Below, piece by piece: positions 1-63,284 of a stretch of 64,000 nt of DNA. Location: the NCBI GenBank assembly GCA_944391315.1, contig CALXTD010000004.1, positions 3,973 to 67,972 on the forward strand, in the 5' to 3' direction. The DNA comes from an uncultured Alphaproteobacteria bacterium (GTDB taxonomy: Bacteria; Pseudomonadota; Alphaproteobacteria; RF32; CAG-239). Position 1 is the first letter of the stretch, and each line of letters begins with the position of its first letter. The notes beneath the pieces were generated by a model. The model ran no database searches. It saw only the letters and a list, made by a program, of their open reading frames with translations, and had not been told where the DNA came from. The position numbers and the translations under genes are program-made.

Positions 1-1583
1 TGGCTGTGGCTGGTACATCTGAAGGTGTGCTGATGGTTGAGTCTGAGGCTCAGGAATTGTCTGAAGAAACCATGCTTGGCGCCGTTATGTTCGGATTTGA
101 AAACTTCCAGCCGGTTATTGCCATGATTAACGAAATGGTTAAAGAAGCCGGAAAGCCGCGTTGGGAAATGCCGAAATTTCCGCCGGAGTTTGATGAACTC
201 TATAACAAACTGGAAAAAGGCTTTATCTCTAAGTTTGAAGAAGCTTTCAAAGAAACCGATAAATTGAAACGTGGTGAACTCGTTGCTCAGGCTTCTGAAG
301 AATTTAAGGCAACCCTTGATCCGGAAAATGAGTTTGACCAAAAGTTTGCTCAAGACGCTATTGAAAAATTGATGCACAAAGTTGTTCGCGAAAAAGTTTT
401 GACAACCGGTAAACGTATTGACGGTCGTGATACCAAAACTGTTCGTCCGATTTGGTGCGAAGTTGATGTTTTGCCGATGGCTCATGGTTCAGCTATCTTT
501 ACTCGTGGCGAAACTCAGGCTTTGGTTGTTACAACTTTGGGTACGGGCGAAGATGCTCAAATTGTTGACGGTTTGATGGAAGAATATAAAGAAGACTTTA
601 TGCTGAACTATAACTTCCCGCCGTTCTCGGTTGGTGAATGTGGTCGTATCGGTAGCCCCGGACGTCGTGAAATCGGTCACGGAAAATTGGCTTGGCGTGC
701 TATTCACCCGATGATGCCGAAAAATAAAGATACATTTCCTTATACTGTTCGCGTTGTTTCTGAAATTTTGGAATCAAACGGTTCTTCTTCAATGGCAACG
801 GTTTGCGGAACAACCATGTCTTTGATGTCTGCCGGTGTGCCAATGGCTAAACCGGTAGCCGGTATTGCTATGGGCTTGATTAAGGAAGAAGATGGTCGTG
901 TGGCCGTTTTGACCGATATTCTCGGTGATGAAGACCACCTCGGCGATATGGACTTTAAGGTTGCCGGTACAAAAGACGGTGTTACCGCTTTGCAGATGGA
1001 TATTAAAATCACATCAATCACCAAAGATATTATGAAAACCGCTTTGGCTCAGGCTCATGAAGGTCGTATCCATATTTTGGGTGAGATGGCAAAGGCTATT
1101 TCTGAACCGCGTCCTCATGTTTCGGACAAAGCGCCGCGTATTGTTGCAATTAAGATTCCGGTTGATAAAATTCGTGAAGTTATCGGTTCAGGCGGTAAAG
1201 TTATTCGTGAAATTACCGAAAAAACGCACTGCAAAATTGATATCAGCGACGATGGTGTTATCAAAATTGCTTCGCTCAAAAAAGAAGACGGTGATGCTGC
1301 TCTTGAATGGATTACCGGTATTGTTGCTGAGCCGGAAGAAGGCAAAATCTATCATGGTGTTATTACCAAGATTATGGATTTTGGTGCTTTTGTTCGTTTT
1401 CTCGGAACAACCGAAGGTTTGGTTCACATTTCCGAAGTCAAGAATGAGCGCATTGCTTCCGTTTCCGACTTCTACAAAGAAGGTGACTCAATTTGGGTAA
1501 AATGTCTTGGCACGGACAATCGTGGCAAGGTTAAGCTTTCCGCAAAGAGAGTTAATCAGGAGACAGGGGAAGACCTCGAATAA
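1..1583 (+). CDS. pnp: Polyribonucleotide nucleotidyltransferase (PNPase), C-terminal ~525 aa; N-terminus lies upstream of the window
   Basis: Frame open to window edge (track ORF 6..1583); RNase PH motifs TRGETQALV and [13 protein letters not shown] motif [11 protein letters not shown]1 domain [15 protein letters not shown]. Confidence 0.95.
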
Positions 1584-2001
1584 AAAAGTTCGTATAATGG
1601 TCGATTAGTGCGTTGTCTGCGGGTCAAAAGTGTCCTCACGTACTACTCTGTACGCTGCGGTACTTTTGCCCTTGACGCCTACTACTCGACTCATTCTCCG
1701 AACTTTTTGAAAAGTCATCTAGAGGCATTTTACGCTGTCTCGAAAAATTCATGTACTACTTTGTACACTAAAATTTTTCTCTCAGCTAGAAATGCCTCTA
1801 TCTGTACTATTATCCCCAGTTTTAAGTCGTAGAAAAGCTCGTATAACGGGCAACTAATACAGATTTAGCTGGTCTCCGACATCCTCACGTACTACTCTGT
1901 ACGCTGCGGTGTCGTCGCCCTAAAATCTTATTATTTGCCTCGTTTTCCAAACTTTTACAAAGTTTGTATAGCGTGCAACTAATACAGTGTTATCAAGCTG
2001 G
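1584..2001 (+). repeat. Array of long imperfect-palindrome units (A 1584-1708, B 1709-1823, C 1824-1956, half unit 1957-2001) starting right after the pnp stop codon
   Basis: Each unit folds on itself around loop GTACTACT(C/T)TGTAC; termini AAAAG(T/C)TCGTATAA.. and ..TTCTCCGA(A/C)CTTTT; units A and B recur at 60522-60775. Confidence 0.85.
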
Positions 2002-3230: not shown

Positions 3231-3716
3231 TTGATGTTTAATTTCCGTCGGTTCGACGATGATTTCATTTTGTTTGCATAACAAAACCGTAACCGGTATG
3301 ATGTCGTTATATTTATAATCGGCATGCAATGGGCAGAGCAATCTGGCTGGAAAGACTTCTGCAGTGTTGTTAATAGCTAGTTCACCGTAGATCTTTTTGC
3401 CATAAAAGGTGGTAATGCGAAAGAAGAGGGTGCCGCTGTGCAAAATTAATTTGAATTTTGCTTCTGCCATTTTTATAGAGATAAACCCTATTATTACTGT
3501 TATGACAATGAATAGTAAAAAATATGGATTTGCCTTCTCATTGCCTGCAAAGTAAAAAAATGACAGAAAACCTAAAACAAATATCCAGAATCCGTTCCAC
3601 ATTTTCCATAAGGTTTGTTTGATAAAATTCCAAAATGGTTGCTTGAATGCTACATAGAAGAAGCTGATGACAATGACCGCGATAGGAAGCAGTACAAAAA
3701 TTTCTAAAGTGCTCAT
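3219..3716 (-). CDS. Hypothetical membrane-anchored protein (3 predicted N-terminal TM helices, soluble C-terminal part)
   Basis: 165-aa ORF with hydrophobic stretches LLPIAVIVISFFYV, FWIFVLGFLSFFYF, FLLFIVITVIIGFISI; own terminator; no family recognised. Confidence 0.55.
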   Translation of the reverse strand: MSTLEIFVLLPIAVIVISFFYVAFKQPFWNFIKQTLWKMWNGFWIFVLGFLSFFYFAGNEKANPYFLLFIVITVIIGFISIKMAEAKFKLILHSGTLFFRITTFYGKKIYGELAINNTAEVFPARLLCPLHADYKYNDIIPVTVLLCKQNEIIVEPTEIKHQGEL

Positions 3717-3818
3717 AAAAATAAGGTATTATAAATTAATAACTAAAATAATAATTCTCTGATTTTTAGGTAGCACTTTATGTCAAAAATGTCAAATAAA
3801 AATTTATGCTTCGTTTTT

Positions 3819-4289
3819 TTAGCCTTGAGGGAAGAGGTGGGTTTGGCGTAAGCCTTCACCCAAGACCATGGCTGCCGAAACCGCCATATTAATCGAACGA
3901 GCGTTTTTGTTCATCGGGATTAATAGTCGAGCATCAACAGTTTCATGAACTTCTTGTGGAACGCCGGCGCTCTCTCTGCCCATTAAGATAATGTCATTTT
4001 TCTTAAAATTGAACTCGGTATAAGGGTTTGATGCATGGGTGGTCATTAAAACCAAGCGCCCGTATTCTTCGGGATGTTCTTGGCGAAACGCTAAGAAATC
4101 TTGCCAAGAATTATGCCGGCGGTAGGATACTTGTTCCAAGTAATCCATACCGGCGCGGCGCATGGCTTTTTCATTAAAAATAAAGCCGCAAGGTTCAATG
4201 ATATCCAGAGCAACGTCTAAACAAGCCCCAAGCCGCAGCAATGTGCCGGTGTTTTGCGGAATGTCGGGTTGAAACAAAGCCAAGCGCAT
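3819..4289 (-). CDS. trmL: SpoU/TrmH-fold tRNA 2'-O-methyltransferase, TrmL-like
   Basis: 156 aa; motifs LMGRESAGVP and IPM..ARSINMAVSAAMVL; size fits TrmL. Confidence 0.8.
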   Translation of the reverse strand: MRLALFQPDIPQNTGTLLRLGACLDVALDIIEPCGFIFNEKAMRRAGMDYLEQVSYRRHNSWQDFLAFRQEHPEEYGRLVLMTTHASNPYTEFNFKKNDIILMGRESAGVPQEVHETVDARLLIPMNKNARSINMAVSAAMVLGEGLRQTHLFPQG

Positions 4290-7023: not shown

Positions 7024-7051
7024 GGGTTGCCTTTGGGCAGCCCTTTTTTTT
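7024..7051 (+). terminator. Rho-independent terminator after thyA
   Basis: GGGTTGCC-TTTG-GGCAGCCC followed by TTTTTTTT. Confidence 0.7.
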
Positions 7052-8411
7052 ATTTTATCAGAAGGCGCTGGGTGCGGGAAATACTGGAAGTGATTTTTCT
7101 GATATTCTCAGAGAGTTCCATATTTTCATAAATATACAATGCGTCGTGAAAATATTCCATGGCTTCTTCAAAATGAGAATTGCCGCCGCCATTTTGCCCA
7201 AGTTGATAATGAATGTTACCAATGGCTTCTTGGATATGTGCCCAAGCCAGCGGATTGCGTCGTTCGGTAACCACCTTTTGTTGGTTGCGGTAGCTGTTAA
7301 TTGCCACTTCGGAAATTTCGCTGCTGTGGGTTATGCTTCCCAGTAAAGCAAGCATTTTTCCTAACTGTCCTTGAAGCTCGGCCCAAAAATTTGGAAATAG
7401 TGCGAAGGTGTATATTTTTTCAGCTTCTCTTAGGTGAAAAACAGCATCTCTTAAAGCCTGCAAATCTTCTTTTTGTTTCCAATAATTATAATACAGATTT
7501 GATAACTTGTAAGATATGTAGCCGTAGTCGTAAGCATAAGTGTATTTGCTTAAATATTTTTGTGCTTGGCGGTAATAGCTGATTGCACCGCGGTAGTAAT
7601 TAATCGGGTTGCGCGTTGTGCATTGTGCCGCCGAATCGTATAGTTGCCCAAAGTGGTAATATATGCAGCCCAGATGAATCGGATTGCTGATTAAATCTTG
7701 TTTTTTTAGGGCGGCATTCAAAAGCTGGTTTATGGTGCGGAAGTTTCTGCCGTCTTCTTCTTCGTGCGCGTAACTCAGATATATTATGCCTAAGAAGTTT
7801 AATATATAAGGCAGATATTCTTCAGGCATGTTTTTTGCCGAATCATCTTTTGTCAGGTTATAAATCGTTCTTTTTAGAAGGTAACGGCGGTAGATTCTTT
7901 GTTGTGCGTCAAGAGGACTGATGGCGCTGAGGATGGCTCCGTTTATCAAATTATGAATGGCTGGCGGAAATAAAGCCGGATTTTCTAAGAATGAGGCCGG
8001 TATGTAAAGGCTGTCCAGCAAGCTGACAAAGGATTTATCCTCGGTTTCATATTGTTTTCCGGTTTGAAAATTGAGTCTGATTTTATCGCCTTCTCTTTTG
8101 CCCCAGATGATGACATCGGCTTTGGTGCGATCAAGAAGAGATTGTCCTCGGTCTATCAGGTCAAATATGGTGCGGCTTTCCAGTGATAATATATTTTGCG
8201 GATAGTCGTGCTCATAGTAAAAACTTTTGAAGTAGTCGGCATCTCCAAGCAATCGAGCCAGCACTTTTCCTGAATCATTTTCTACATTGTCAGCAAACTC
8301 TATAACACCGACAGAAAAATATATGTGTTTGTAGTCTGAAAGGTTTAAGGGTTTTTCCTTGGCCTTTTGCTGGGGATATAAAAGACTGAAAAGCTTTTGC
8401 ACTAAGTTCAT
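7050..8411 (-). CDS. Hypothetical Tyr-rich, TPR-like helical repeat protein (453 aa)
   Basis: Long ORF; repeated Y/A-rich helical segments (YYRGAISYYRQAQKY, AMEYFHDALYIYENM); family not recognised. Confidence 0.6.
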   Translation of the reverse strand: MNLVQKLFSLLYPQQKAKEKPLNLSDYKHIYFSVGVIEFADNVENDSGKVLARLLGDADYFKSFYYEHDYPQNILSLESRTIFDLIDRGQSLLDRTKADVIIWGKREGDKIRLNFQTGKQYETEDKSFVSLLDSLYIPASFLENPALFPPAIHNLINGAILSAISPLDAQQRIYRRYLLKRTIYNLTKDDSAKNMPEEYLPYILNFLGIIYLSYAHEEEDGRNFRTINQLLNAALKKQDLISNPIHLGCIYYHFGQLYDSAAQCTTRNPINYYRGAISYYRQAQKYLSKYTYAYDYGYISYKLSNLYYNYWKQKEDLQALRDAVFHLREAEKIYTFALFPNFWAELQGQLGKMLALLGSITHSSEISEVAINSYRNQQKVVTERRNPLAWAHIQEAIGNIHYQLGQNGGGNSHFEEAMEYFHDALYIYENMELSENIRKITSSISRTQRLLIK

Positions 8412-8415
8412 TGGT

Positions 8416-9462
8416 CTAGTCTTTCGTCTTTAGCCCGTCGGCGAAGTTGCTGACATTGGTTTTAATGTCATTTATTACTGTGCTATTAATTTCTTTTAAT
8501 GTCGGGATAGCTTCTTTCCAGTGCCAGAGGCGATGGAAAAACCAGATGCAGCTCATGAGTGCAAATATCGGCAATGAATATGCGTTTGGAGCAAAAGCCG
8601 AAAATCCTCCCAATATGATTAAAAGCAATAAGAGTTTGCTGATGGCGGCTGTTGTTTCTGCAGGTGTTAAGCCGCTTAATCCGATTAAATAATAGTCAGA
8701 GTTTTGGGATAATTGATTTTTATTGCCTCTTGTTAAGAAGTAACGTCCGAGGCTGATGATTATTTGATAAGCAAAAAACATATTGAAGCAGAGTATGCAG
8801 CTGCCGGCGCCTTCAGTGGCGGCTTTTAAGTTAAACCATGCTAAAATAAAACCAAGTGCCCAGCTATCTGCTTTTGATAATTTTAGTTTTGCGGGGTAGT
8901 TGTCAAATAATTGCCAAGCGCTAAAAATGCTAATAGCGCATAGAGCCATGATGCCTATGAACAAAGGAGCTCCGCCAATTAGGCTGAGAATGCCAATGCC
9001 GCCCAAGACCCCAAGGCTTTGTGCGCCGGTTATGCCATTGGTGGTGCTTAGCCAGCTAAAGCAATAAGCATAAATCGTCCAGAGCAAGATGAGTGTGCTT
9101 CTGTCCGCCCAAAAGTCTAATTCTCCATTAAATATCATGCCATTGGCAGGAAGTGTGAAACTAGCAATTTCGGCACCGAGAAAAAGTATTAATAGATTGA
9201 GCTTAGGAAATTTTTGGAGCAAAATGTAAAGAACAGCACTGATGGCAGCTAGAGATGGAATTTCCCAGATATAAAGCGCCGAGATAAAATCGGTTTGAGG
9301 CGGCAGTGCAAAATAGAGGCTCATCCAGCCGGCAAAAATTGCGGTCCACAAAAGCCAAAATGTTCCTTTGCCATTGTTGGCAGAGATTTGTTTTAATCCG
9401 ATAAAGCTTCCTAAAAAGCACAGGATTATGGCGATTGTAATTGCTATTAAGCTTTTTTCCAT
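8416..9462 (-). CDS. Hypothetical polytopic inner-membrane protein (348 aa, ~9-10 TM)
   Basis: Almost entirely hydrophobic ORF ending 4 nt upstream of the TPR-like gene; no catalytic motif recognised. Confidence 0.6.
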   Translation of the reverse strand: MEKSLIAITIAIILCFLGSFIGLKQISANNGKGTFWLLWTAIFAGWMSLYFALPPQTDFISALYIWEIPSLAAISAVLYILLQKFPKLNLLILFLGAEIASFTLPANGMIFNGELDFWADRSTLILLWTIYAYCFSWLSTTNGITGAQSLGVLGGIGILSLIGGAPLFIGIMALCAISIFSAWQLFDNYPAKLKLSKADSWALGFILAWFNLKAATEGAGSCILCFNMFFAYQIIISLGRYFLTRGNKNQLSQNSDYYLIGLSGLTPAETTAAISKLLLLLIILGGFSAFAPNAYSLPIFALMSCIWFFHRLWHWKEAIPTLKEINSTVINDIKTNVSNFADGLKTKD

Positions 9463-14822: not shown

Positions 14823-15377
14823 ATGAGAATGCGGAAATCGGCTCTGATTTTAATCTTGTTCCTTATTACTGGATGTGGTTTTTCTCCACTGTATGTGGAG
14901 CGCGAATCCGGAAGTAAGTGGTATTATGATGCCAATTTTAATCCCTCTATTATTGAGGAAATGCAACAGATTAAAGTCGAGCCGATTGCCGATCGTTTTG
15001 GACAACAGCTGCGCAATAATCTTCTGGATTCTTTGACGCCGAAAGGAACGCCTAAGAATCCTAAATATCGTTTGTTTGTTAAACTGGCAAGTAAACGAAC
15101 TTATGACCAGGCTATTCGTCAAGATATTACCGCTACTCGCCGAATGGTGGTCTTTAAGGTTACGTATTATATGATGGAAGGGACGGAAAAGCTCTTTACC
15201 AGTAATAGCATAGCCTATACCAGTTATGATATTTTGAAGAATCCTTATTCAACAACCGTGGCAGAGCAAAAGGCTGATACAGATGCGGCAAAAATTATCG
15301 GTGATGATATTGCTCTGCGTATAGGTGCTTATTTCCACTCAGTTATTACAAAGCAGGGGTCAACCAGTGATATTTAA
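14823..15377 (+). CDS. lptE: LPS-assembly lipoprotein LptE (RlpB)
   Basis: ATG 14823 gives MRMRKSALILILFLITGCGF with lipobox; conserved leuS-lptE-holA order. Confidence 0.75.
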   Translation: MRMRKSALILILFLITGCGFSPLYVERESGSKWYYDANFNPSIIEEMQQIKVEPIADRFGQQLRNNLLDSLTPKGTPKNPKYRLFVKLASKRTYDQAIRQDITATRRMVVFKVTYYMMEGTEKLFTSNSIAYTSYDILKNPYSTTVAEQKADTDAAKIIGDDIALRIGAYFHSVITKQGSTSDI

Positions 15378-16413
15378 GTCTCCGCAAATTGACCGCTATT
15401 TGAAAAAGCCGGACAATGCCGTTAAATTTTGGCTGGTTTATGGCTCAAACGAAGGCCTGATGTCGGAATATGTGCGTAATCTGACAAAGGCTATCAGCCC
15501 TGATATTTATGATCCATTTCAGGTTGTATATCTTAACGGAGAAGATGTGAATGCTGATGCCGGTTTGCTTATCGGCGAATTTAATGCTCAATCTCTGATG
15601 GGGGGACGTCGGGTTGTTGTGATCAAAAACGCCGACAATAATCTGACTAAAGTTCTTAAGTCTTTATTTGATGATGCAAAGTCGGACACACTTTTAATTA
15701 TTTATTCGGCGTCTTTGAATAAAAAGTCTTCTTTGGTGAAGTTTGCCGAAGATGCTGAGTTTGCCGGTGTTGTTGCTTGTTATGAAGACCGCGATGAAGA
15801 TGTTTTTTCAACAGTCAGGACCTTTTTGAGTGAAAACGGTGTGTCTGTTGGAAATGAGGCGCTGCAGCTTTTATGCGCGCGACTTTCTAATGACCGAAAA
15901 AGTAATTTGGGTGAGCTGGAAAAACTGGTGACTTATCTCGGAGACAAGAAAACGGTTTTGCCTGAAGATGTGCGGGCGGTGGTTAGTGATACGGCTTCTT
16001 CTTCGACCGATGACGTGTGTTTTTTTGCTGCCAGTGGTTTGAAAGACAAAACGCTTCAAGCTTATCAACGTTTGTTGAATGAAGGGACTGATCCGGCGCA
16101 AGTGGTGCGTTCTTTGTTTTATCATTTTCAGAAGATTTTGGTTTGTCTCGGGTCTATGGAAAATGGTGACACGATTGACACAGCAGTTAAAAAGCTGGTG
16201 CCGAGGATTATTTTTTTCCGCGAATCTAGTTTCAAAAAACAGCTTAGCATTTGGAATCGTGATCGTGTTTTTAGTGTTTTGGAATTGCTCTATAACTGCG
16301 AAAGAGATACGCGTAATGCGGCTATGCCGGTTGAGGAGATGGTTAGTTATTTGTTGATGCAGGTTTCTTCGGCCGCGGCTAATGCTGCCGCAAAACTCAG
16401 CCGAGGTTATTAG
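15367..16413 (+). CDS. holA: DNA polymerase III delta subunit
   Basis: Track ORF 15325..16413; likely GTG start 15367 overlapping lptE stop; LVYGSNEGL near N-terminus; position after lptE. Confidence 0.8.
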   Translation: MIFKSPQIDRYLKKPDNAVKFWLVYGSNEGLMSEYVRNLTKAISPDIYDPFQVVYLNGEDVNADAGLLIGEFNAQSLMGGRRVVVIKNADNNLTKVLKSLFDDAKSDTLLIIYSASLNKKSSLVKFAEDAEFAGVVACYEDRDEDVFSTVRTFLSENGVSVGNEALQLLCARLSNDRKSNLGELEKLVTYLGDKKTVLPEDVRAVVSDTASSSTDDVCFFAASGLKDKTLQAYQRLLNEGTDPAQVVRSLFYHFQKILVCLGSMENGDTIDTAVKKLVPRIIFFRESSFKKQLSIWNRDRVFSVLELLYNCERDTRNAAMPVEEMVSYLLMQVSSAAANAAAKLSRGY

Positions 16414-18624: not shown

Positions 18625-19677
18625 TTATGCTCCCGTGCTGAGGTTATAATATCCGTTCATATCCTGAAGGTTTAAGCGATAAGCCTTTAAGGCGGTAATC
18701 AAGTCATAAATTTGACCGATGTATTCCAGACGGAATTGGACTTTGCCTTTGCCCATGGCTTCAATTTTCACACTGCTTATTTGGGGAATGTTTTTGAGCT
18801 GGTTTTCGGTTTTAATCCAATCAGATAATTTTTGATAGCTGAACATTCCGATTAATTCCTGCCGGCTTGTGTCGGAGGCAAAGTTTTGTTCCTGAATGGT
18901 GCTGTCGATATAAGCAGCGACCTCGGGAATCGCTTTTTGGAAAAGCTCAGGGCTTCTTTCTCCGCTGATGTCTATGGTTTTTGATGGTTGGCCGTTGTAG
19001 GACATGATGTTTATTCTTAAGCCTTCAATGCCATTATAAACCGCATCTAAAACATAGATGTTGCGGGTGTTGAGGTGGCTGGCAACAAGGTCTAATGCTT
19101 GGCCGTTGAGTTGGAGCGCTTTGTTGCCGTCTAAAACAGAATAAACCATGCTGTCGGCTGGAACGGATATATAATTGTTCTCGCTGCCGGTTTGGGGTGA
19201 TTGTTCCCAAGCTTTGCGCCACTCGTTGCGGCTTTCCCACAGCAGAGGAGAATCGCCGGAGAATTCACGGAATACGGGAACAACAATGATGTTTGAAGCT
19301 GTGCGGATAACGTAGTTTATCCCTTGTTCTTCCATATAAGCTTTAAGCAGGTTATTATTTATGCGGACTTTAAGCGTGGCGATATAACGCACGTTTGAGG
19401 CTTTTTCTGAGACGACCTCAGCTTCTTGAATGAAATTTACCAGTTGATCATCGGTTAAGTTTGACAGGCGCGCTAATCCCTCGCTGTCAGTAGACTTTCC
19501 GGCAACGGTCAAAAAAGCTTTGCGATAAGCTTCTTTCATGCCTTTTTCTCGGGCGGAGGCGGCGTCTTCGGCTGTGATGTCTATGCTGACTTCCGCAACA
19601 TATTTTTCACTGCTTTCTGCGTTGGCTGTGTGTATGATGCCAAAGCTCATCAATAGGGCTAAAATTATTTTGTGCAA
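18625..19677 (-). CDS. Secreted hypothetical protein, DUF2066-like
   Basis: Signal peptide MHKIILALLMSFGIIHTANA; size and layout recall DUF2066; family call tentative. Confidence 0.5.
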   Translation of the reverse strand: MHKIILALLMSFGIIHTANAESSEKYVAEVSIDITAEDAASAREKGMKEAYRKAFLTVAGKSTDSEGLARLSNLTDDQLVNFIQEAEVVSEKASNVRYIATLKVRINNNLLKAYMEEQGINYVIRTASNIIVVPVFREFSGDSPLLWESRNEWRKAWEQSPQTGSENNYISVPADSMVYSVLDGNKALQLNGQALDLVASHLNTRNIYVLDAVYNGIEGLRINIMSYNGQPSKTIDISGERSPELFQKAIPEVAAYIDSTIQEQNFASDTSRQELIGMFSYQKLSDWIKTENQLKNIPQISSVKIEAMGKGKVQFRLEYIGQIYDLITALKAYRLNLQDMNGYYNLSTGA

Positions 19678-50864: not shown

Positions 50865-51683
50865 ATGCAAGTGAGGTTTTCTATGGAAATGCTTGAAAAA
50901 TATAAGTTATATAATGGTGATTGTTTTGAGGTGTTAGAAAAATTTCCCTCAGAAACGTTTGATATGATTTTTGCTGATCCTCCTTATATGTTGTCCGGTG
51001 AGGGAATCGCTTGTAAAAGCGGTAAGCTTGTTTCTATCAATAAAGGAAGTTGGGATAAAAGCAACGGCATAGAAGAAGATTTTGAATTCCATAAAAAATG
51101 GTTGTCTTTGTGCAAGCGGTTGCTTAAACCTAATGGTACTATTTGGGTTTCGGGAACTTATCATAATATTCTTTCCTGCGGGTATGCCATGCTTTTGCTA
51201 AACTATCATATTCTTAATGATATTGCATGGTTTAAGCCTAATGCCAGCCCAAACATCTCTTGCAAATATTTTACGGCCAGTCATGAAAGTTTGCTTTGGG
51301 CCAGAAAAGATAAAAAAGCCAAGCATTATTTTAATTATAAGGCAATGAAGGAAGGGTATTTTCCTAACGATTTTATCAAAAAGCCCAATATGCAAATGCG
51401 CAGTGTTTGGGCTATTGCCGCAACAAAACCCTGTGAAAAACTCCACGGACGGCATCCGACGCAAAAGCCTTTGGAATTGTTGGAACGTATTATTACGGCT
51501 TCTACCCAAGAAGGTGATTTGATTCTTGATCCGTTTATGGGGAGCGGAACGACCGGTGTGGCCGCTCTTAAGCTTGGTAGAAAATTTGTTGGGGTTGATG
51601 CTGAGAAGCAGTATGTTGAACTGGCAGAACGTCGGATTTCGGATGTTATGAATAATCCGCAAATTACGGGACTGAAATTATAA
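50865..51683 (+). CDS. Beta-class (motif IV before motif I) DNA N6-adenine/N4-cytosine methyltransferase, DpnIIB/DpnA-like
   Basis: DMIFADPPYMLSG, NGTIWVSGTYHNI, WFKPNASPNISCKYFTASHESLLWARK, HPTQKP, ILDPFMGSGTTGV, VGVDAEKQY; start may be 50883. Confidence 0.88.
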   Translation: MQVRFSMEMLEKYKLYNGDCFEVLEKFPSETFDMIFADPPYMLSGEGIACKSGKLVSINKGSWDKSNGIEEDFEFHKKWLSLCKRLLKPNGTIWVSGTYHNILSCGYAMLLLNYHILNDIAWFKPNASPNISCKYFTASHESLLWARKDKKAKHYFNYKAMKEGYFPNDFIKKPNMQMRSVWAIAATKPCEKLHGRHPTQKPLELLERIITASTQEGDLILDPFMGSGTTGVAALKLGRKFVGVDAEKQYVELAERRISDVMNNPQITGLKL

Positions 51684-55850: not shown

Positions 55851-56918
55851 TTAAAACTCAATGACCGGACGGACATGGTAGCTGCGTTCTTTATAGTAAT
55901 TTGCGTAGTCAAAACTGGAACTGGTACTGTCGCTCAGACCATAGCTATTGCCTAAATAAGAATACCAAGCACGATAAGCTCCGGTTTCACATGATGACCA
56001 AGCGTAGGTGGTTTTTATGAATGCTGTTCCGCCTGCGTTATTGAAACCTGTGTTTATTTTGCTTTGATTATTGTAATATGAGGTAAATATTCCTGCTGCC
56101 GGCAAGCACCAATCTCCGACCTTCGTTCCTTTGGTTGTATAATTATATGCTGCCCATACTGCCGGATAGGTGCTACTGTCTCCTTGAGCTCTTATTATTG
56201 CGCTATTTTCACAACTTGCAACGTCTTGTGATGCTCCCGCTTTATAACTATAATTAGGTAAGTCTGGAATATCAATCCCGTAGCCACCCCATTCATAGCC
56301 CCCTATTGATTTCAGTGCTAAAGCTTGTCCGCATTTTCCGTCACTGGATTTATAAACCACTACTGCTATCGGAGTCTTGCCCGATACTTTATTCGCGTTG
56401 CATGTTCCATCACTGAACAAGATATCGCCAATTGCGCAGTTTGTTGCATATCCATTACATTGACCGAATTCTACTGGAATAACGCATTTTGAACCATTCC
56501 ATAAATAACCTGTAGTACACTTGCAAGCAGTATATTTTTCTCCACAAGCGGTGCCACTTCCTCCGGTTTGGTTTGCTCCTGTGCAAGCATATTGATATGT
56601 TGTCGGGCAAGTACAAGCTGTTCCATTCCATGTGTATGGGTTGCTGCAAGTGCATGACGTATATTTTCCGTCACAAGTTTCTCCAACACCACCGGCGTAG
56701 CCAGTTCCGCTGCAAGTATAGTTAAAACCCATTTCGCTACAGGTCTTCGTACAAAACCATTTATCACCCCAAGGGCATTTGACGCCGCCGTTTGGGCAAG
56801 AAGCTTCGGTATAGCCAAGGCTTGCGCAATCTGGTGTCGCCGTACAAGTCGGGGTTTGGGCGATGGCGCTTATTGGCGCGATAACTGCCGCGCTTGTCAT
56901 TAATATGATTTTTCTCAT
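55851..56918 (-). CDS. Secreted Cys-rich modular protein with DUF1566/Lcl-C-like C-terminal domain
   Basis: ATG 56918 after AGGAGAAATA; signal peptide MRKIILMTSAAVIAPISAIAQ; 20 Cys in first ~165 mature residues; C-terminus DWCLPAAGIF..YAWSS.E..AWY....G......HVRPVIEF. Confidence 0.8.
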   Translation of the reverse strand: MRKIILMTSAAVIAPISAIAQTPTCTATPDCASLGYTEASCPNGGVKCPWGDKWFCTKTCSEMGFNYTCSGTGYAGGVGETCDGKYTSCTCSNPYTWNGTACTCPTTYQYACTGANQTGGSGTACGEKYTACKCTTGYLWNGSKCVIPVEFGQCNGYATNCAIGDILFSDGTCNANKVSGKTPIAVVVYKSSDGKCGQALALKSIGGYEWGGYGIDIPDLPNYSYKAGASQDVASCENSAIIRAQGDSSTYPAVWAAYNYTTKGTKVGDWCLPAAGIFTSYYNNQSKINTGFNNAGGTAFIKTTYAWSSCETGAYRAWYSYLGNSYGLSDSTSSSFDYANYYKERSYHVRPVIEF

Positions 56919-56935
56919 CTTATTTCTCCTTCTTG

Positions 56936-57838
56936 TTATAAGCACAGCATAAACGCGCTGTTATATGGACATTTCAAAGCTCTGCCGCTGCAACTCGTTG
57001 ACTTATAGCCTAATGCCGCGCAATCGGTTATCGGCGCGGTGCAATAATAGTCATAATTAACCGCGCAGCCGGTGATATACCATTTGCCCGAGCAATCTTC
57101 GAATGCACAGTCATAGCCCTCGGGGCAAGTTGTTAATGTGCCGTTGTTATCGCAAGTCTTACATTCTCTATAAAGGGTGGTGGTGCCTGACAAACAAGTT
57201 TCTGTCCCCGCGATTGGTCCTAAATCACCGCAAATTTGAAAACCCTCGCAAGCTGCTGCCACGACTTGATATTTGGTTTGTCCATCACAATCCAAACAAG
57301 GTTCACCAAGTTGTTCATATCCGGCCGGAATCTCGGTTTCGGTATATTCCGAGCCGCAAGGGGTGCAAGTGCAGGACGCATATTTGCCGTTGCAAGCCTC
57401 GCCAACTCCGACATAGGGTTCTTCGCAAGTTACGTAATCACTTGGGCAAGTTGAGACACAATCTGAATAATAAGGGCCGTATGGACATTTCTTTCCCCCT
57501 GGGGCATACCATTCGGGGCATTCACTGACCGTAAAACCTTCATTAAAGCAGCGGTCATGAGCATTCATGTCAAAATCGGGTAAATTGCCACTGTCATTGC
57601 CACCGAACATCGCATCAGAACAAGCCGAGGTGTCATTAATAAAACAAACCGCTGCGGTTTGAAATTCATCAGAAGAAGGCAAACTTGGTGACGAAGCATA
57701 AAGGTGTGTGTGAAGTGTGTAGACAAGCTGTTCGTCACTCTTGATAACAGAATTATCAGCTCTCGCGCCGGTCGGCAAAATTCCTACCGCCAAACAAAGC
57801 GCCGCGGTCAAAACCGCCTTTTGTCGTGAGATAAACAT
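56936..57838 (-). CDS. Secreted Cys-rich modular protein (about 29 Cys in 300 aa)
   Basis: Signal-like N-terminus AVLTAALCLAVGILPTGARA; shares G.xC[ND]GKY[AT]SCTC and DCA[AS]LGY..SC....KCP modules with downstream gene. Confidence 0.75.
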   Translation of the reverse strand: MFISRQKAVLTAALCLAVGILPTGARADNSVIKSDEQLVYTLHTHLYASSPSLPSSDEFQTAAVCFINDTSACSDAMFGGNDSGNLPDFDMNAHDRCFNEGFTVSECPEWYAPGGKKCPYGPYYSDCVSTCPSDYVTCEEPYVGVGEACNGKYASCTCTPCGSEYTETEIPAGYEQLGEPCLDCDGQTKYQVVAAACEGFQICGDLGPIAGTETCLSGTTTLYRECKTCDNNGTLTTCPEGYDCAFEDCSGKWYITGCAVNYDYYCTAPITDCAALGYKSTSCSGRALKCPYNSAFMLCL

Positions 57839-60519: not shown

Positions 60520-60521
60520 TT

Positions 60522-60800
60522 AAAAGGTCGTATAACGGTCGATTAGTGCGTTGTCTGCGGGGCAAAAGTGTCCTCACGTACTACTCTGTACGCTCCGGTA
60601 CTTTTGCCCTTGACGCCTACTACTCGACTCGTTCTCCGACCTTTTTGTAAAGCTCGTATAACAGCACATCTAGAGGCATTTTACGCTGTTTCGAAAAATT
60701 CATGTACTACTCTGTACACTAAAATTTTTCTCTCAGCTAGAAATGCCTCTATCTGTAACTGTTCTCCGAGCTTTTGTAAATCTCGGATAACGGGCAAAGG
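60522..60800 (+). repeat. Second array of the palindromic units (A 60522-60646, B 60647-60775, first ~25 nt of a C-type unit 60776-60800)
   Basis: Same order and orientation as 1584-2001; A copies differ at 6 of ~123 positions, B cores at 2 of ~93. Confidence 0.88.
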
Positions 60801-60899: not shown

Positions 60900-60975
60900 A
60901 GGGGTATAGCTCAGTTGGTAGAGCATCGGTCTCCAAAACCGAGTGTCGTGAGTTCGAATCTTACTGCCCCTGCCA
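60900..60975 (+). tRNA. tRNA-Trp (anticodon CCA)
   Basis: Hand-folded: acceptor AGGGGTA/TGCCCCT, D-arm GCTC..GAGC, anticodon stem TCGGT/ACCGA with loop CTCCAAA, T-arm GTGAG-TTCGAAT-CTTAC, encoded GCCA; classic position upstream of secE-nusG. Confidence 0.93.
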
Positions 60976-61012
60976 ATAAAAGAACCGTCCGAAAAGACGG
61001 TTTTTTTATTGG
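60973..61012 (+). terminator. Terminator of tRNA-Trp (17-bp stem containing the T-run)
   Basis: CCAATAAAAGAACCGTC-CGAAAA-GACGGTTTTTTTATTGG. Confidence 0.75.
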
Positions 61013-61017
61013 CATTT

Positions 61018-61162
61018 AGGGGTAGTTGATGAGAACTCACGAGAAGGTGAGTTCGACGCCAAACGAAAGGCGGGCGGGAGCACGCCGGTGAGCGAAAGCG
61101 AATGAGTGCGAAGGAACAAGCATTGCGAAGCAATGTCGCGGACAATCTTACTGCCCCTGCCA
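61018..61162 (+). other. tRNA-Trp-derived tRNA-like unit 1 (acceptor plus T-arm retained, 87-nt GC-rich insert in T-loop, GCCA end)
   Basis: AGGGGTA + 22 nt + GTGAGTTCGA + 87 nt + AATCTTACTGCCCCTGCCA; identical strings to tRNA-Trp acceptor and T-arm. Confidence 0.5.
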
Positions 61163-61199
61163 ATAAAAGAACCGTCCGAAAAGACGGTTTTTTTATTGG
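61160..61199 (+). terminator. Second copy of the terminator hairpin
   Basis: Identical to 60973-61012, shifted by 187 nt. Confidence 0.7.
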
Positions 61200-61204
61200 C
61201 ATTT

Positions 61205-61348
61205 AGGGGTAGTTGATGAGAACTCACGAGAAGGTGAGTTCGACGCCAAACGAAAGGCGGGCGGGAGCACGCCGGTGAGCGAAAGCGAATGAGTGCGAAG
61301 GAACAAGCATTGCGAAGCAATGTCGCGGACAATCTTACTGCCCTGCCA
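61205..61348 (+). other. tRNA-like unit 2, 3' acceptor strand decayed (TGCCCT instead of TGCCCCT)
   Basis: Same as unit 1 until the last 15 nt. Confidence 0.45.
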
Positions 61349-61382: not shown

Positions 61383-61396
61383 TAAAATCTTGTCTA

Positions 61397-61718
61397 ATGG
61401 TTTTCTAGAGCCGTTTGCTCAGGTCGAAAGTGTCCTCACGTACTCGTTTGTACGCTGTGGTACTTTCGCCTTTCAAACAACTCTATAAATTCCATTATCC
61501 GAGATTTTTTAAGTGCAGAATGGCTTTCTAGAGCCGTTTGCTCAGGTCGAAAGTGTCCTCACGTACTTCTTTGTACGCTGCGGTACTTTCGCCTTTCAAA
61601 CAACTCTATAAATTCCTTTATCCGAGATTTTTTAAGTGCAGAATGGCTTTCTAGAGCCGTTTGCTCAGGTCGAAAGTGTCCTCACGTACTGTTTGTACGT
61701 TGAGGACTTTTGTTTTTT
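61397..61718 (+). repeat. 123-bp tandem D-type palindromic units (61397-61519, 61520-61642, truncated 61643-61718)
   Basis: Share core CGAAAGTGTCCTCACGTACT..GTACGCTG(C/T)GGTACTTTCG with A-type units; outer arms TCTAGAGCCGTTTG / CAAACAACTCTATA are unit-specific. Confidence 0.88.
61678..61718 (+). terminator. Near-perfect hairpin plus T-run formed by the truncated third D unit
   Basis: GTCCTCACGTAC-TGTTT-GTACGTTGAGGAC followed by TTTTGTTTTTT. Confidence 0.6.
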
Positions 61719-61801: not shown

Positions 61802-61830
61802 TTGACATATCTAAAATAATTTACTATCTT
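61802..61830 (+). promoter_or_regulatory. Sigma70-like promoter candidate for secE-nusG
   Basis: TTGACA, 17-nt spacer, TATCTT. Confidence 0.5.
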
Positions 61831-63197: not shown

Positions 63198-63228
63198 AAA
63201 AGCGGAGGTTTCGAACCTCCGTTTTCTT
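63196..63228 (+). terminator. Terminator after mscL
   Basis: Palindrome CGGAGGTTCGAACCTCCG followed by TTTTCTT. Confidence 0.7.
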
Positions 63229-63233
63229 GCTAC

Positions 63234-63268
63234 AAAAATCCCCAAAGAGTTTGTCCTTGGGGATTTTC
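63234..63268 (-). terminator. Terminator of the 63285..63905 gene
   Basis: Minus strand AAAATCCCCAA..loop..TTGGGGATTTTTG. Confidence 0.7.
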
Positions 63269-63284
63269 TTGTTTAAGTTTATTT

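Follow-up and report, generated by a model that had tools for sequence, protein, structure and literature searches.

Hairpin arrays beside pnp in a gut alphaproteobacterium share an apical core with the Rickettsia palindromic element RPE-1

Introduction

Immediately behind the stop codon of pnp, in a 64,000-nt stretch of DNA from an uncultured alphaproteobacterium (assembly GCA_944391315.1, contig CALXTD010000004.1, positions 3,973 to 67,972 of the forward strand; hereafter the window), stands an array of long hairpin units, and the question that the locus raises is what these units are, how they came to lie beside a core gene and what keeps their arms complementary. A preliminary description had likened them to REP, Correia and RPE-type repeats and had recognised no family in which to place them. 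Here, we report that their apex is common, base for base, to RPE-1, a Rickettsia palindromic element (RPE), and to abundant elements of gut and rumen Alphaproteobacteria and of the Nevskiales. RPE-1 was reportedly described by Ogata et al. 2000/2002 and is represented by the NCBIfam model TIGR01045, and since 2000 RPEs have been taken for something peculiar to Rickettsia and Wolbachia. What is new is the invariant apex that ties RPE-1 to abundant families outside the Rickettsiales, palindromic repeats of the RPE or MITE-like kind being already known. We consider it probable that the array consists of non-autonomous palindromic elements resembling miniature transposable elements with inverted repeats (MITEs), a new family of the RPE-1 superfamily whose folded single strand would be read by a putative enzyme. 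RPEs are documented in Rickettsia and Wolbachia (PMC3767692) and are classed as MITEs with an unknown target-site duplication (TSD), entered as '?' (PMC2229807; also PMC10969869).

Results

The array downstream of pnp

The array extends from the pnp stop codon towards the convergent pth gene (minus strand), whose stop codon lies at 2010, and is composed as follows.

1581..1583, + strand: pnp stop codon TAA, continuous with the A-run that opens unit A; start of the array in every strain
1584..1708, + strand: unit A, full hairpin element of about 125 nt (-52.1 kcal/mol, z -8.6; nhmmer E 4e-36)
1709..1830, + strand: unit B (-35.7 kcal/mol, z -6.4), both termini degenerate
1831..1957, + strand: unit C, full hairpin element (-39.7 kcal/mol; nhmmer E 8.5e-32), core at 1883-1909
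1958..2001, + strand: unit D, 44-nt 3'-truncated left-arm fragment (82% to the left arm of C; hmm positions 5-49)

The array reported earlier as adjoining the pnp stop is therefore real, with three full units and the truncated D within 1584-2001; no spacer separates the TAA from unit A, and A, B, C and D are consecutive. The core of unit A lies at 1634-1660, and its left arm presents stop codons in all three frames (1581, 1595 and 1606). Unit B has a variant core, TCATGTAC..GTACACT, which is a compensatory C-G to T-A change. The right terminal stem of unit C matches the left end of D and not its own left end, and fragment D is fixed across all strains. The self-complementary arm pairs that had been quoted for the units were recovered by a repeat search as unit-specific inverted repeats; the shared core and the shared ends were recovered too, with the reservation that unit B at pnp has degenerate ends.

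Full units are 122-130 nt long and fold into a single long hairpin each, with + strand energies of -36 to -58 kcal/mol, - strand energies of -39 to -59 kcal/mol and z-scores of -5 to -10 against dinucleotide shuffles. The apical loop motif GTACTNNTNTGTAC is shared, as had been proposed, and occurs seven times in the window against 0.24 expected, while five copies of the 27-nt core were counted and 100 shuffles gave none, both motifs being on the + strand only. The arms of A, B and C had been said to differ completely; A, B and C, with E from a further array, are clearly distinct subfamilies, but at 74-79% identity over aligned positions (shared core and ends included) that wording was somewhat overstated. 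The whole window gave no Rfam match at the gathering threshold, a permissive Rfam scan (E <= 10) of one window unit and one RPE-1 copy returned chance-level matches only, and blastn of unit A against plasmid and phage collections returned no match.

An apical core shared with RPE-1

The apical core is written CCTCACGTACTNNTNTGTACGCTG(Y)GG, and the exact pattern CCTCACGTACTNNTNTGTACGCTG, which fixes 21 bases, was scanned in one genome per GTDB species (596 Gb). It was found at no fewer than 115 loci, against about 0.3 chance matches calculated for 21 specified bases in 596 Gb, so the family has further copies far beyond the window and across many taxa. The hosts are many gut and rumen alphaproteobacterial metagenome-assembled genomes (MAGs), at least nine Rickettsia species or symbionts, Gammaproteobacteria of the Nevskiales (Solimonas, Panacagrimonas, Steroidobacteraceae) and a few others. 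Single contigs assigned to Nitrospiria and to 'Firmicutes' also carry the core, both of them short and possibly mis-binned, and its presence on one viral contig indicates no general association with phages. Among these loci, L008 is the pnp locus of the window again; that locus also stands in CASFLB010000051.1 ('uncultured proteobacterium' bin.82), and its relatives are gut and rumen alphaproteobacterial MAGs. The core forms the apex of an imperfect palindrome of 120-150 nt in every lineage, the arms being lineage-specific.

A copy from Rickettsia tamurae (locus L049), translated on the strand opposite to CCTCACG, matched TIGR01045, 'palindromic element RPE1 domain', with 78.3 bits (E 3e-22; cutoff 30 bits), and Rickettsia elements of that type are therefore RPE-1. 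The suspected kinship with REP, Correia or RPE-type hairpin repeats is supported in this way, and the RPE lead in particular was sound, since elements with the identical core in Rickettsia belong to that named family. The statement that the family could not be recognised holds in one part only: the core is that of RPE-1, whereas the window units gave no match to TIGR01045 at E <= 1. In three gut alphaproteobacterial MAGs the RPE1 model scored 43.3 (L103), 30.7 (L044) and 25.2 bits, and the MAG of L044 carries window-type units besides its RPE-1-like copy. A second Rickettsia family has the same core, a left-end motif (CTCGTNTAAT) resembling that of the window family and the terminal inverted repeat GGTATACTCGTTTAATTTG; it did not match TIGR01045 in the three of six frames scanned. 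The hidden Markov model (HMM) of the gut family aligns to RPE-1 over the core (hmm 51-82) and, for several copies, into the right arm (hmm 51-123).

Four loci of gut alphaproteobacterial MAGs (L028, L079, L103 and L111) have RPE-1-like elements in which the conserved core is extended (CCGGTGCTCGCGT...CGGGTCTGCGCTCCG), three of the four inside long open reading frames (ORFs) and in the RPE1-coding orientation, and in-frame insertions of the RPE type may not be confined to the Rickettsiales.

Judged from their sequences, these families appear to form a graded superfamily, with RPE-1 of Rickettsia, RPE-1-like elements in gut Alphaproteobacteria, and window-type elements that have only the apex and the left-end motif in common with them. 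The RPE literature consulted contained no mention that the core is shared, and looking for the core itself in publications yielded unrelated primers only. An isolated curiosity thus becomes a superfamily with hundreds of diverged copies, which is material for a partner-enzyme search by phyletic profiling and for defining the essential structural features.

Covariation and conserved non-pairing

In an alignment of 52 non-identical gut-family units, the consensus hairpin comprises 46 pairs. Paired cells amount to 94.9%, as compared with 77.4% when partners were shuffled and about 40% when they were slid, and 37 of the 46 pairs show changes on both sides (434 cells), which bears out the earlier observation of stems that change and still pair. 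Among the 2392 cells, 2231 are Watson-Crick, 39 are G·T (a wobble on the top strand), 34 are A·C (a wobble on the bottom strand) and 88 are other combinations. A strand-specific functional RNA is expected to tolerate G·U and to avoid A·C. Because G·T and A·C cells are equally rare, this near-pure Watson-Crick covariation is the signature of a DNA palindrome and not of a strand-specific RNA structure. The palindrome could be kept by selection on both strands or on a folded single strand, by templated correction from arm to arm, or by both; template switching at quasi-palindromes is an established mechanism. Folding energy was dropped as a test for the RNA strand: bottom strands are more stable by about 3 kcal/mol whatever the family, a difference attributed to the constant core mismatches (G·A versus U·C), and the wobble counts favour neither strand.

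Perfect palindromes occur at L040, L052 and L104 (Rickettsia and related MAGs), made from the left-arm version in L040 and from the right-arm version in L052 and L104, in arm segments of the second Rickettsia family that are normally non-complementary. They fit the route of templated correction and are direct evidence of arm-to-arm copying.

Certain positions, on the other hand, are kept from pairing. In 117 elements from all families, position 25 opposite T3 is C in 103 and T in 14, and A or G in none, and one C of the apical domain stays bulged. A sub-terminal 3x3 pyrimidine bubble, TAT/CTC, is found in 33 of the 52 aligned units, one or two pairs inside the terminal stem, with the variants TCT/ATC, seen in 8, and CTC/TAT, the mirror image. 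In B- and F-type units the pair C6-G21 of the core stem is replaced in compensatory fashion by T-A, and each unit has an A-run/T-run terminal stem whose sequence differs from copy to copy. Kept pairing combined with kept non-pairing would be the pattern expected of a folded site that is read strand-specifically. Such sites are known from RAYT acting on REP DNA and from IntI acting on attC.

Position relative to genes

Among 53 first units of the gut family, about 45 contain the upstream ORF's stop codon within the left arm or have it at the terminus of that arm. This stop is provided by the TAR of AYTARTNC (25 nt before the core), by the TAA of GTATAAY (36 nt) or by a TAA or TAG on the terminal A-run (45-52 nt). 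A filled site (L078) compared with its empty counterpart (L013) places the array directly after a conserved TAA, in an operon spacer of 17 nt. In L021 the element replaces the last approximately 11 codons of a DNA polymerase III delta homologue that is intact in the window (15325-16413), and L043 has lost seven codons relative to L024 and L092; in all, between 4 and 11 codons are replaced at ORF ends, the unit then supplying the stop. No internal in-frame insertion into an ORF was seen for the window-type family. The elements thus truncate or re-terminate ORFs, which matters for the annotation of these MAGs. Native intrinsic terminators persist downstream of many arrays, and the units therefore lie within the transcribed 3' untranslated region (UTR) and are not, in general, terminators themselves. 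Transcription as 3' trailers, which had been predicted, is likewise inferred from these downstream terminators. Insertion into the loop of a native terminator, an idea that would explain the variable terminal stems, was rejected because the stem from A-run to bubble always has 4-6 bp as against 6-10 bp in native stems, and because native terminators remain downstream.

Counting each array once, 23 lie in convergent, 27 in tandem and two in divergent spacers. The sense orientation noted for the window copies extends to this wider sample, since tandem contexts de-duplicated by upstream gene family gave 19 sense versus 5 antisense cases, one of the five being an artefact of spurious ORFs at the third locus of the window. 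RPE-1 copies inside Rickettsia genes have the opposite orientation in 9 of 9 cases, the one with the open frame. In the sense orientation, a unit ends translation within 0-9 codons, whereas the reverse would add 24-33 codons in two frames. Part of the sense bias can come from selection on the encoded tail, but where units begin cleanly behind a TAA such selection cannot account for it.

An unrelated multi-hairpin element of 138 nt, with an apparent ATAAA duplication, was observed at L128:3505-3645 and in L130 exactly between the stop TAA of mscL and the A-run of the terminator; the site is empty in L127 and L132, and its counterpart in the window is 63198-63284. The boundary between stop codon and A-run seems to be an insertion hotspot common to unrelated elements.

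Strain variation of the arrays

Contigs from other samples encode a Pth identical to that of the window, and yet their pnp-pth spacers range from 340 to about 800 nt and contain different units: new F and G types appear, B stands in different places and C is present or absent. Arrays also differ between strains with identical NusG. The comparison of the pnp 3' region among close relatives, proposed in the preliminary description, thus revealed a strain-variable content between a constant start and a constant end, all pnp-pth arrays closing with fragment D. At a second array of the window, described below, L129 has one full unit more, a 125-nt indel flanked by a 14-nt left-arm repeat. Between the E units of the third array, L127 has a gene block of 1.2 kb. 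Unit-number changes are explained by unequal recombination, and the arrays mark strain-level rearrangement hotspots beside core genes (pnp, pth, secE).

Among 67 arrays away from locus edges, 15 have a trailing unit reduced to its left arm, none has a trailing right-arm-only unit and two have a leading right-arm-only unit; about half of the trailing stubs share their subfamily with the preceding unit. That 5'-side deletions would damage the gene explains this asymmetry only in part, and it may also reflect copying anchored at the left end. A metagenome scan with the PNPase C-terminus for an empty pnp site returned two close relatives only, one with a degenerate left arm and one without the element, both too diverged for boundary mapping.

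The closest metagenome relative (PNPase 93% identity) has only a degenerate left arm, GCTTAACGGGAAACCGAGCAGATTTGACCGGTGAAAATGT, after the pnp stop (L137:2685-2730), which suggests an old, decayed insertion at the same site. In L121, the array beside pth is preceded by lon instead of pnp, through either a rearrangement via the repeats or an assembly chimera. L117 has a strain-specific insert of 0.55 kb (3626-4140) in its pnp-pth array. The insert stands between two copies of AAAAGTTTGTAT, with 12 nt of the element's left end repeated at its flanks and the break just past the TAT bubble; it encodes an 80-aa helix-turn-helix (HTH) protein of the Xre type (3846-4088; PF12844, PF01381) and has its own terminator and a structured upstream region.

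Other arrays in the window

Two further arrays, both on the + strand, lie at 60521-60797 and 61383-61712.

60521..60647, + strand: unit A' (-58.3 kcal/mol), 95% identical to A, 1-2 nt past the stop codon of the H+-PPase gene
60648..60776, + strand: unit B', intact B-type with canonical ends (-50.3 kcal/mol, z -9.9)
60777..60797, + strand: truncated 21-nt left end, followed by a weak hairpin and a T-run
61383..61633, + strand: units E1 and E2, a tandem pair from a fourth subfamily in the interval from tRNA-Trp to secE (period 123, 94% matches)
61636..61712, + strand: unit E3, ending just past the core, as core hairpin plus TTTTGTTTTTT, upstream of the promoter-like site of secE

The order A-B at pnp is repeated as A'-B' at the second locus, B and B' being 93% identical. 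E3 is present in all strains, and its hairpin, read by eye as GTCCTCACGTAC-TGTTT-GTACGTTGAGGAC and then TTTTGTTTTTT, looks like an intrinsic terminator; a simple terminator scanner missed it, probably on account of a bulge in the stem. The promoter-like site before secE is at 61802-61830. The core stem of E3 has in some strains undergone a compensatory G-C to A-T change, and the constraint on core sequence is relaxed once a unit serves only as a hairpin.

At tRNA-Trp (60900-60975), 2.1 copies of a 187-nt unit follow one another with 99% identity (60957-61348), and each copy closes with a duplicated tRNA-Trp 3' end (AATCTTACTGCCCCTGCCA), resembling the att sites left by tRNA integration. In other strains, the same region holds islands of 0.9-1.2 kb with ORFs of 187, 206 and 237 aa that have no Pfam match, accompanied by the inverted repeat GTCCGTGT...ACACGGAC.

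Discussion

The window units resemble RPE-1 in more than one respect. The apical core of 24-27 nt is the same down to its T·Y mismatch and bulged C; the architecture is that of an imperfect palindrome (105-150 nt in RPE-1, 122-130 nt in the window); the left-end motif is related (AAACTC...); both are able to enter ORFs, the window type at their 3' ends; and for both families transposase and TSD are undefined (PMC2229807). They differ in that the arms are unrelated in sequence, that the window units fail the RPE1 peptide model, that stops occupy all three sense frames where RPE-1 keeps an open frame, and that the units are found where ORFs end and within 3' UTRs, oriented opposite to intragenic RPE-1. 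They also form head-to-tail arrays, in a gut alphaproteobacterial MAG and not in Rickettsia or Wolbachia.

With REP/BIME sequences and their RAYT (a Y1 HUH transposase), the units have in common that they are palindromic repeats 3' of ORFs, in tandem and convergent spacers and in mosaic arrays, and the conserved unpaired bases of the REP hairpin are needed for single-strand recognition (PMC3733652). REPs are, however, 20-40 nt long with a GTAG or CGTC tag, whereas the window units are about 125 nt, have no GTAG tag and show CGTC only in a CGTCTAA variant of the left end (8 of 52 units); their conserved part is the apex, their orientation is single and no RAYT was found. MITEs such as Correia/NEMIS, ERIC and RUP are likewise 100-200 bp long, form long stem-loops when transcribed, lie between and inside genes and affect transcript 3' ends (PMC2229807, PMC10969869), but they have conserved terminal inverted repeats and a flanking TA duplication. 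In the window family the apex is most conserved, the terminal stems are variable and no TSD is defined, and no parent insertion sequence was found for the window units. The attC sites of integrons are also folded single-strand sites (57-141 nt) in which the ends are conserved, the middle is variable but self-complementary and unpaired bases define the strand, and they often include the stop codon of an ORF. They have no conserved apical loop. The window units are without the R'/R'' consensus on the right side, most of them carry no cassette, and no integrase was found. Membership in attC was rejected: GTATAAC agrees with R'' (RYYYAAC) at 6 of 7 positions, GTTCTCC agrees with R' (GTTRRRY) at 4 of 7, and a search of the window ORFs found no integrase.

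The reading that we favour is one of mobile palindromes. The elements would spread, or would have spread in the past, via a folded single-stranded intermediate, with the apical domain and the bubble being read strand-specifically by a structure-specific enzyme acting in trans, either HUH/Y1-transposase-like or functionally equivalent. Insertion would occur at a T|A-run boundary beside stop codons, the complementarity of the arms would be kept by the requirement for a folded form together with templated correction between arms, and the arrays would later be remodelled by unequal recombination and template switching. Co-transcription as 3'-UTR hairpins would follow from position, with exaptation possible, as in E3. 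More tentatively, and as a speculation that we hold to be rather improbable as yet, the 27-nt apex with its obligatory Y·Y mismatch and bulged C may be the recognition site of a widespread enzyme that moves or copies DNA hairpins of about 125 nt, RPE-1 included, strand-specifically, anchored at the left end and aimed at the boundary between stop codon and A-tract. If true, bacteria would possess a mobile-element system of a new kind, and the spread of RPEs would be explained.

Several observations weigh against mobility. Pfam searches of about 55 window ORFs found no transposase, integrase, reverse transcriptase or HUH gene, and all-against-all clustering of 3032 ORFs from the 115 listed loci found no candidate enzyme recurring near the elements, only housekeeping families and a Cys-rich repeat protein. 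The search for RAYT or other HUH transposases, to which the preliminary description had pointed, was thus negative among the window ORFs and near the 115 listed loci. Filled and empty pairs from gut MAGs and Rickettsia showed no consistent TSD, with a possible AAAAAC repeat around one RPE-1 copy only. Comparison of strains brought no clean new insertion to light; the changes seen were confined to existing arrays and are of a kind that recombination by itself can yield. The position in 3' UTRs and the sense bias would also fit an RNA function, and the stub asymmetry (15 trailing left-arm-only units versus none of the right arm) is not predicted by simple cut-and-paste.

A host function at the RNA level is the main rival. 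The units would then be modules selected by the host, as 3'-UTR hairpins that ward off 3' exonucleases from mRNAs, as RNase III sites or as aids to termination, with a conserved RNA-binding protein bound to the apical loop. We regard this as unlikely, though it accounts for much: units lie between stop codon and terminator, 19 of them sense versus 5 antisense and nearly absent from divergent spacers, E3 is apparently used as a terminator, and REPs, which in general follow ORFs too, are considered to act as RNA (PMC3733652). It accords poorly with the lack of a strand-specific wobble signature (39 G·U versus 34 A·C of 2392 cells, both strands folding), with the opposite orientation of all nine intragenic RPE-1 copies and with the free variation of unit number and type among strains. 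Moreover, the compensatory drift of the E3 core indicates that hairpin formation alone fails to explain the sequence constraint on full units. A protein might instead read the core as duplex, a dimeric host factor of nucleoid, replication or regulation binding GTAC-N6-GTAC, with the long arms incidental. The near-perfect dyad of the core, its half-sites about one helical turn apart and its invariance beyond pairing would suit such a factor, yet the core stem exchanges C-G for T-A in a compensatory way, a mismatch and a bulge are conserved, and covariation extends along 46 pairs, all of which points to a folded form. We know of no operator that matches, and consider duplex recognition very improbable.

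Two further alternatives also concern mobility. If the units were integron-like recombination sites, the mobile entity would be gene plus hairpin and bare arrays would be empty cassettes. ORF stop codons inside the left arm, in the manner of attC cassettes, conserved ends with variable stems and retained unpaired bases are in keeping with this, as are the 80-aa HTH gene of L117 between its two AAAAGTTTGTAT copies, with the break just past the TAT bubble, and the 1.2-kb gene block between E units in L127. That this is the explanation is nonetheless decidedly improbable: the right end GTTCTCC departs from R' (GTTRRRY), no integrase was found among the window ORFs, the flanking genes (pnp, pth, H+-PPase, secE) are core housekeeping genes whose synteny is conserved, most units adjoin each other without cargo, and the islands are explained by the att-like repeats of the tRNA-Trp region itself. 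Replicative copying from the left end, primed on the A-run and often aborting, is also improbable, if marginally less so. It would use a U- or T-tailed template and possibly a reverse transcriptase, with template jumps building the mixed arrays, and would account for the 15 trailing left-arm-only units versus no right-arm-only ones, for arrays that always begin in register at the stop codon or A-run, and for the trailing partial units, half of which belong to another subfamily than the preceding unit. However, neither a reverse transcriptase nor a primase-like gene was seen, an antisense template RNA or a specific single DNA strand would be required, and the asymmetry is partly explicable by selection, 5'-side deletions running into the gene.

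Other features

Cys-rich, highly repetitive and apparently secreted proteins of up to 636 aa, with no Pfam domain, are encoded at L002:1246-3153 (minus strand) and at 13 other gut-MAG loci, in several MAGs within about 1 kb of elements; this proximity is probably coincidental paralogy. The window also contains long ORFs of 300-453 aa that have no Pfam match (E <= 1e-5), at 7050-8411, 8416-9462, 18625-19677, 55851-56945 and 56936-57838. An N6/N4 DNA methylase (PF01555, 212 bits) is encoded at 50865-51683 with no recognised restriction gene in its neighbourhood, and it may be an orphan methylase of the CcrM type.

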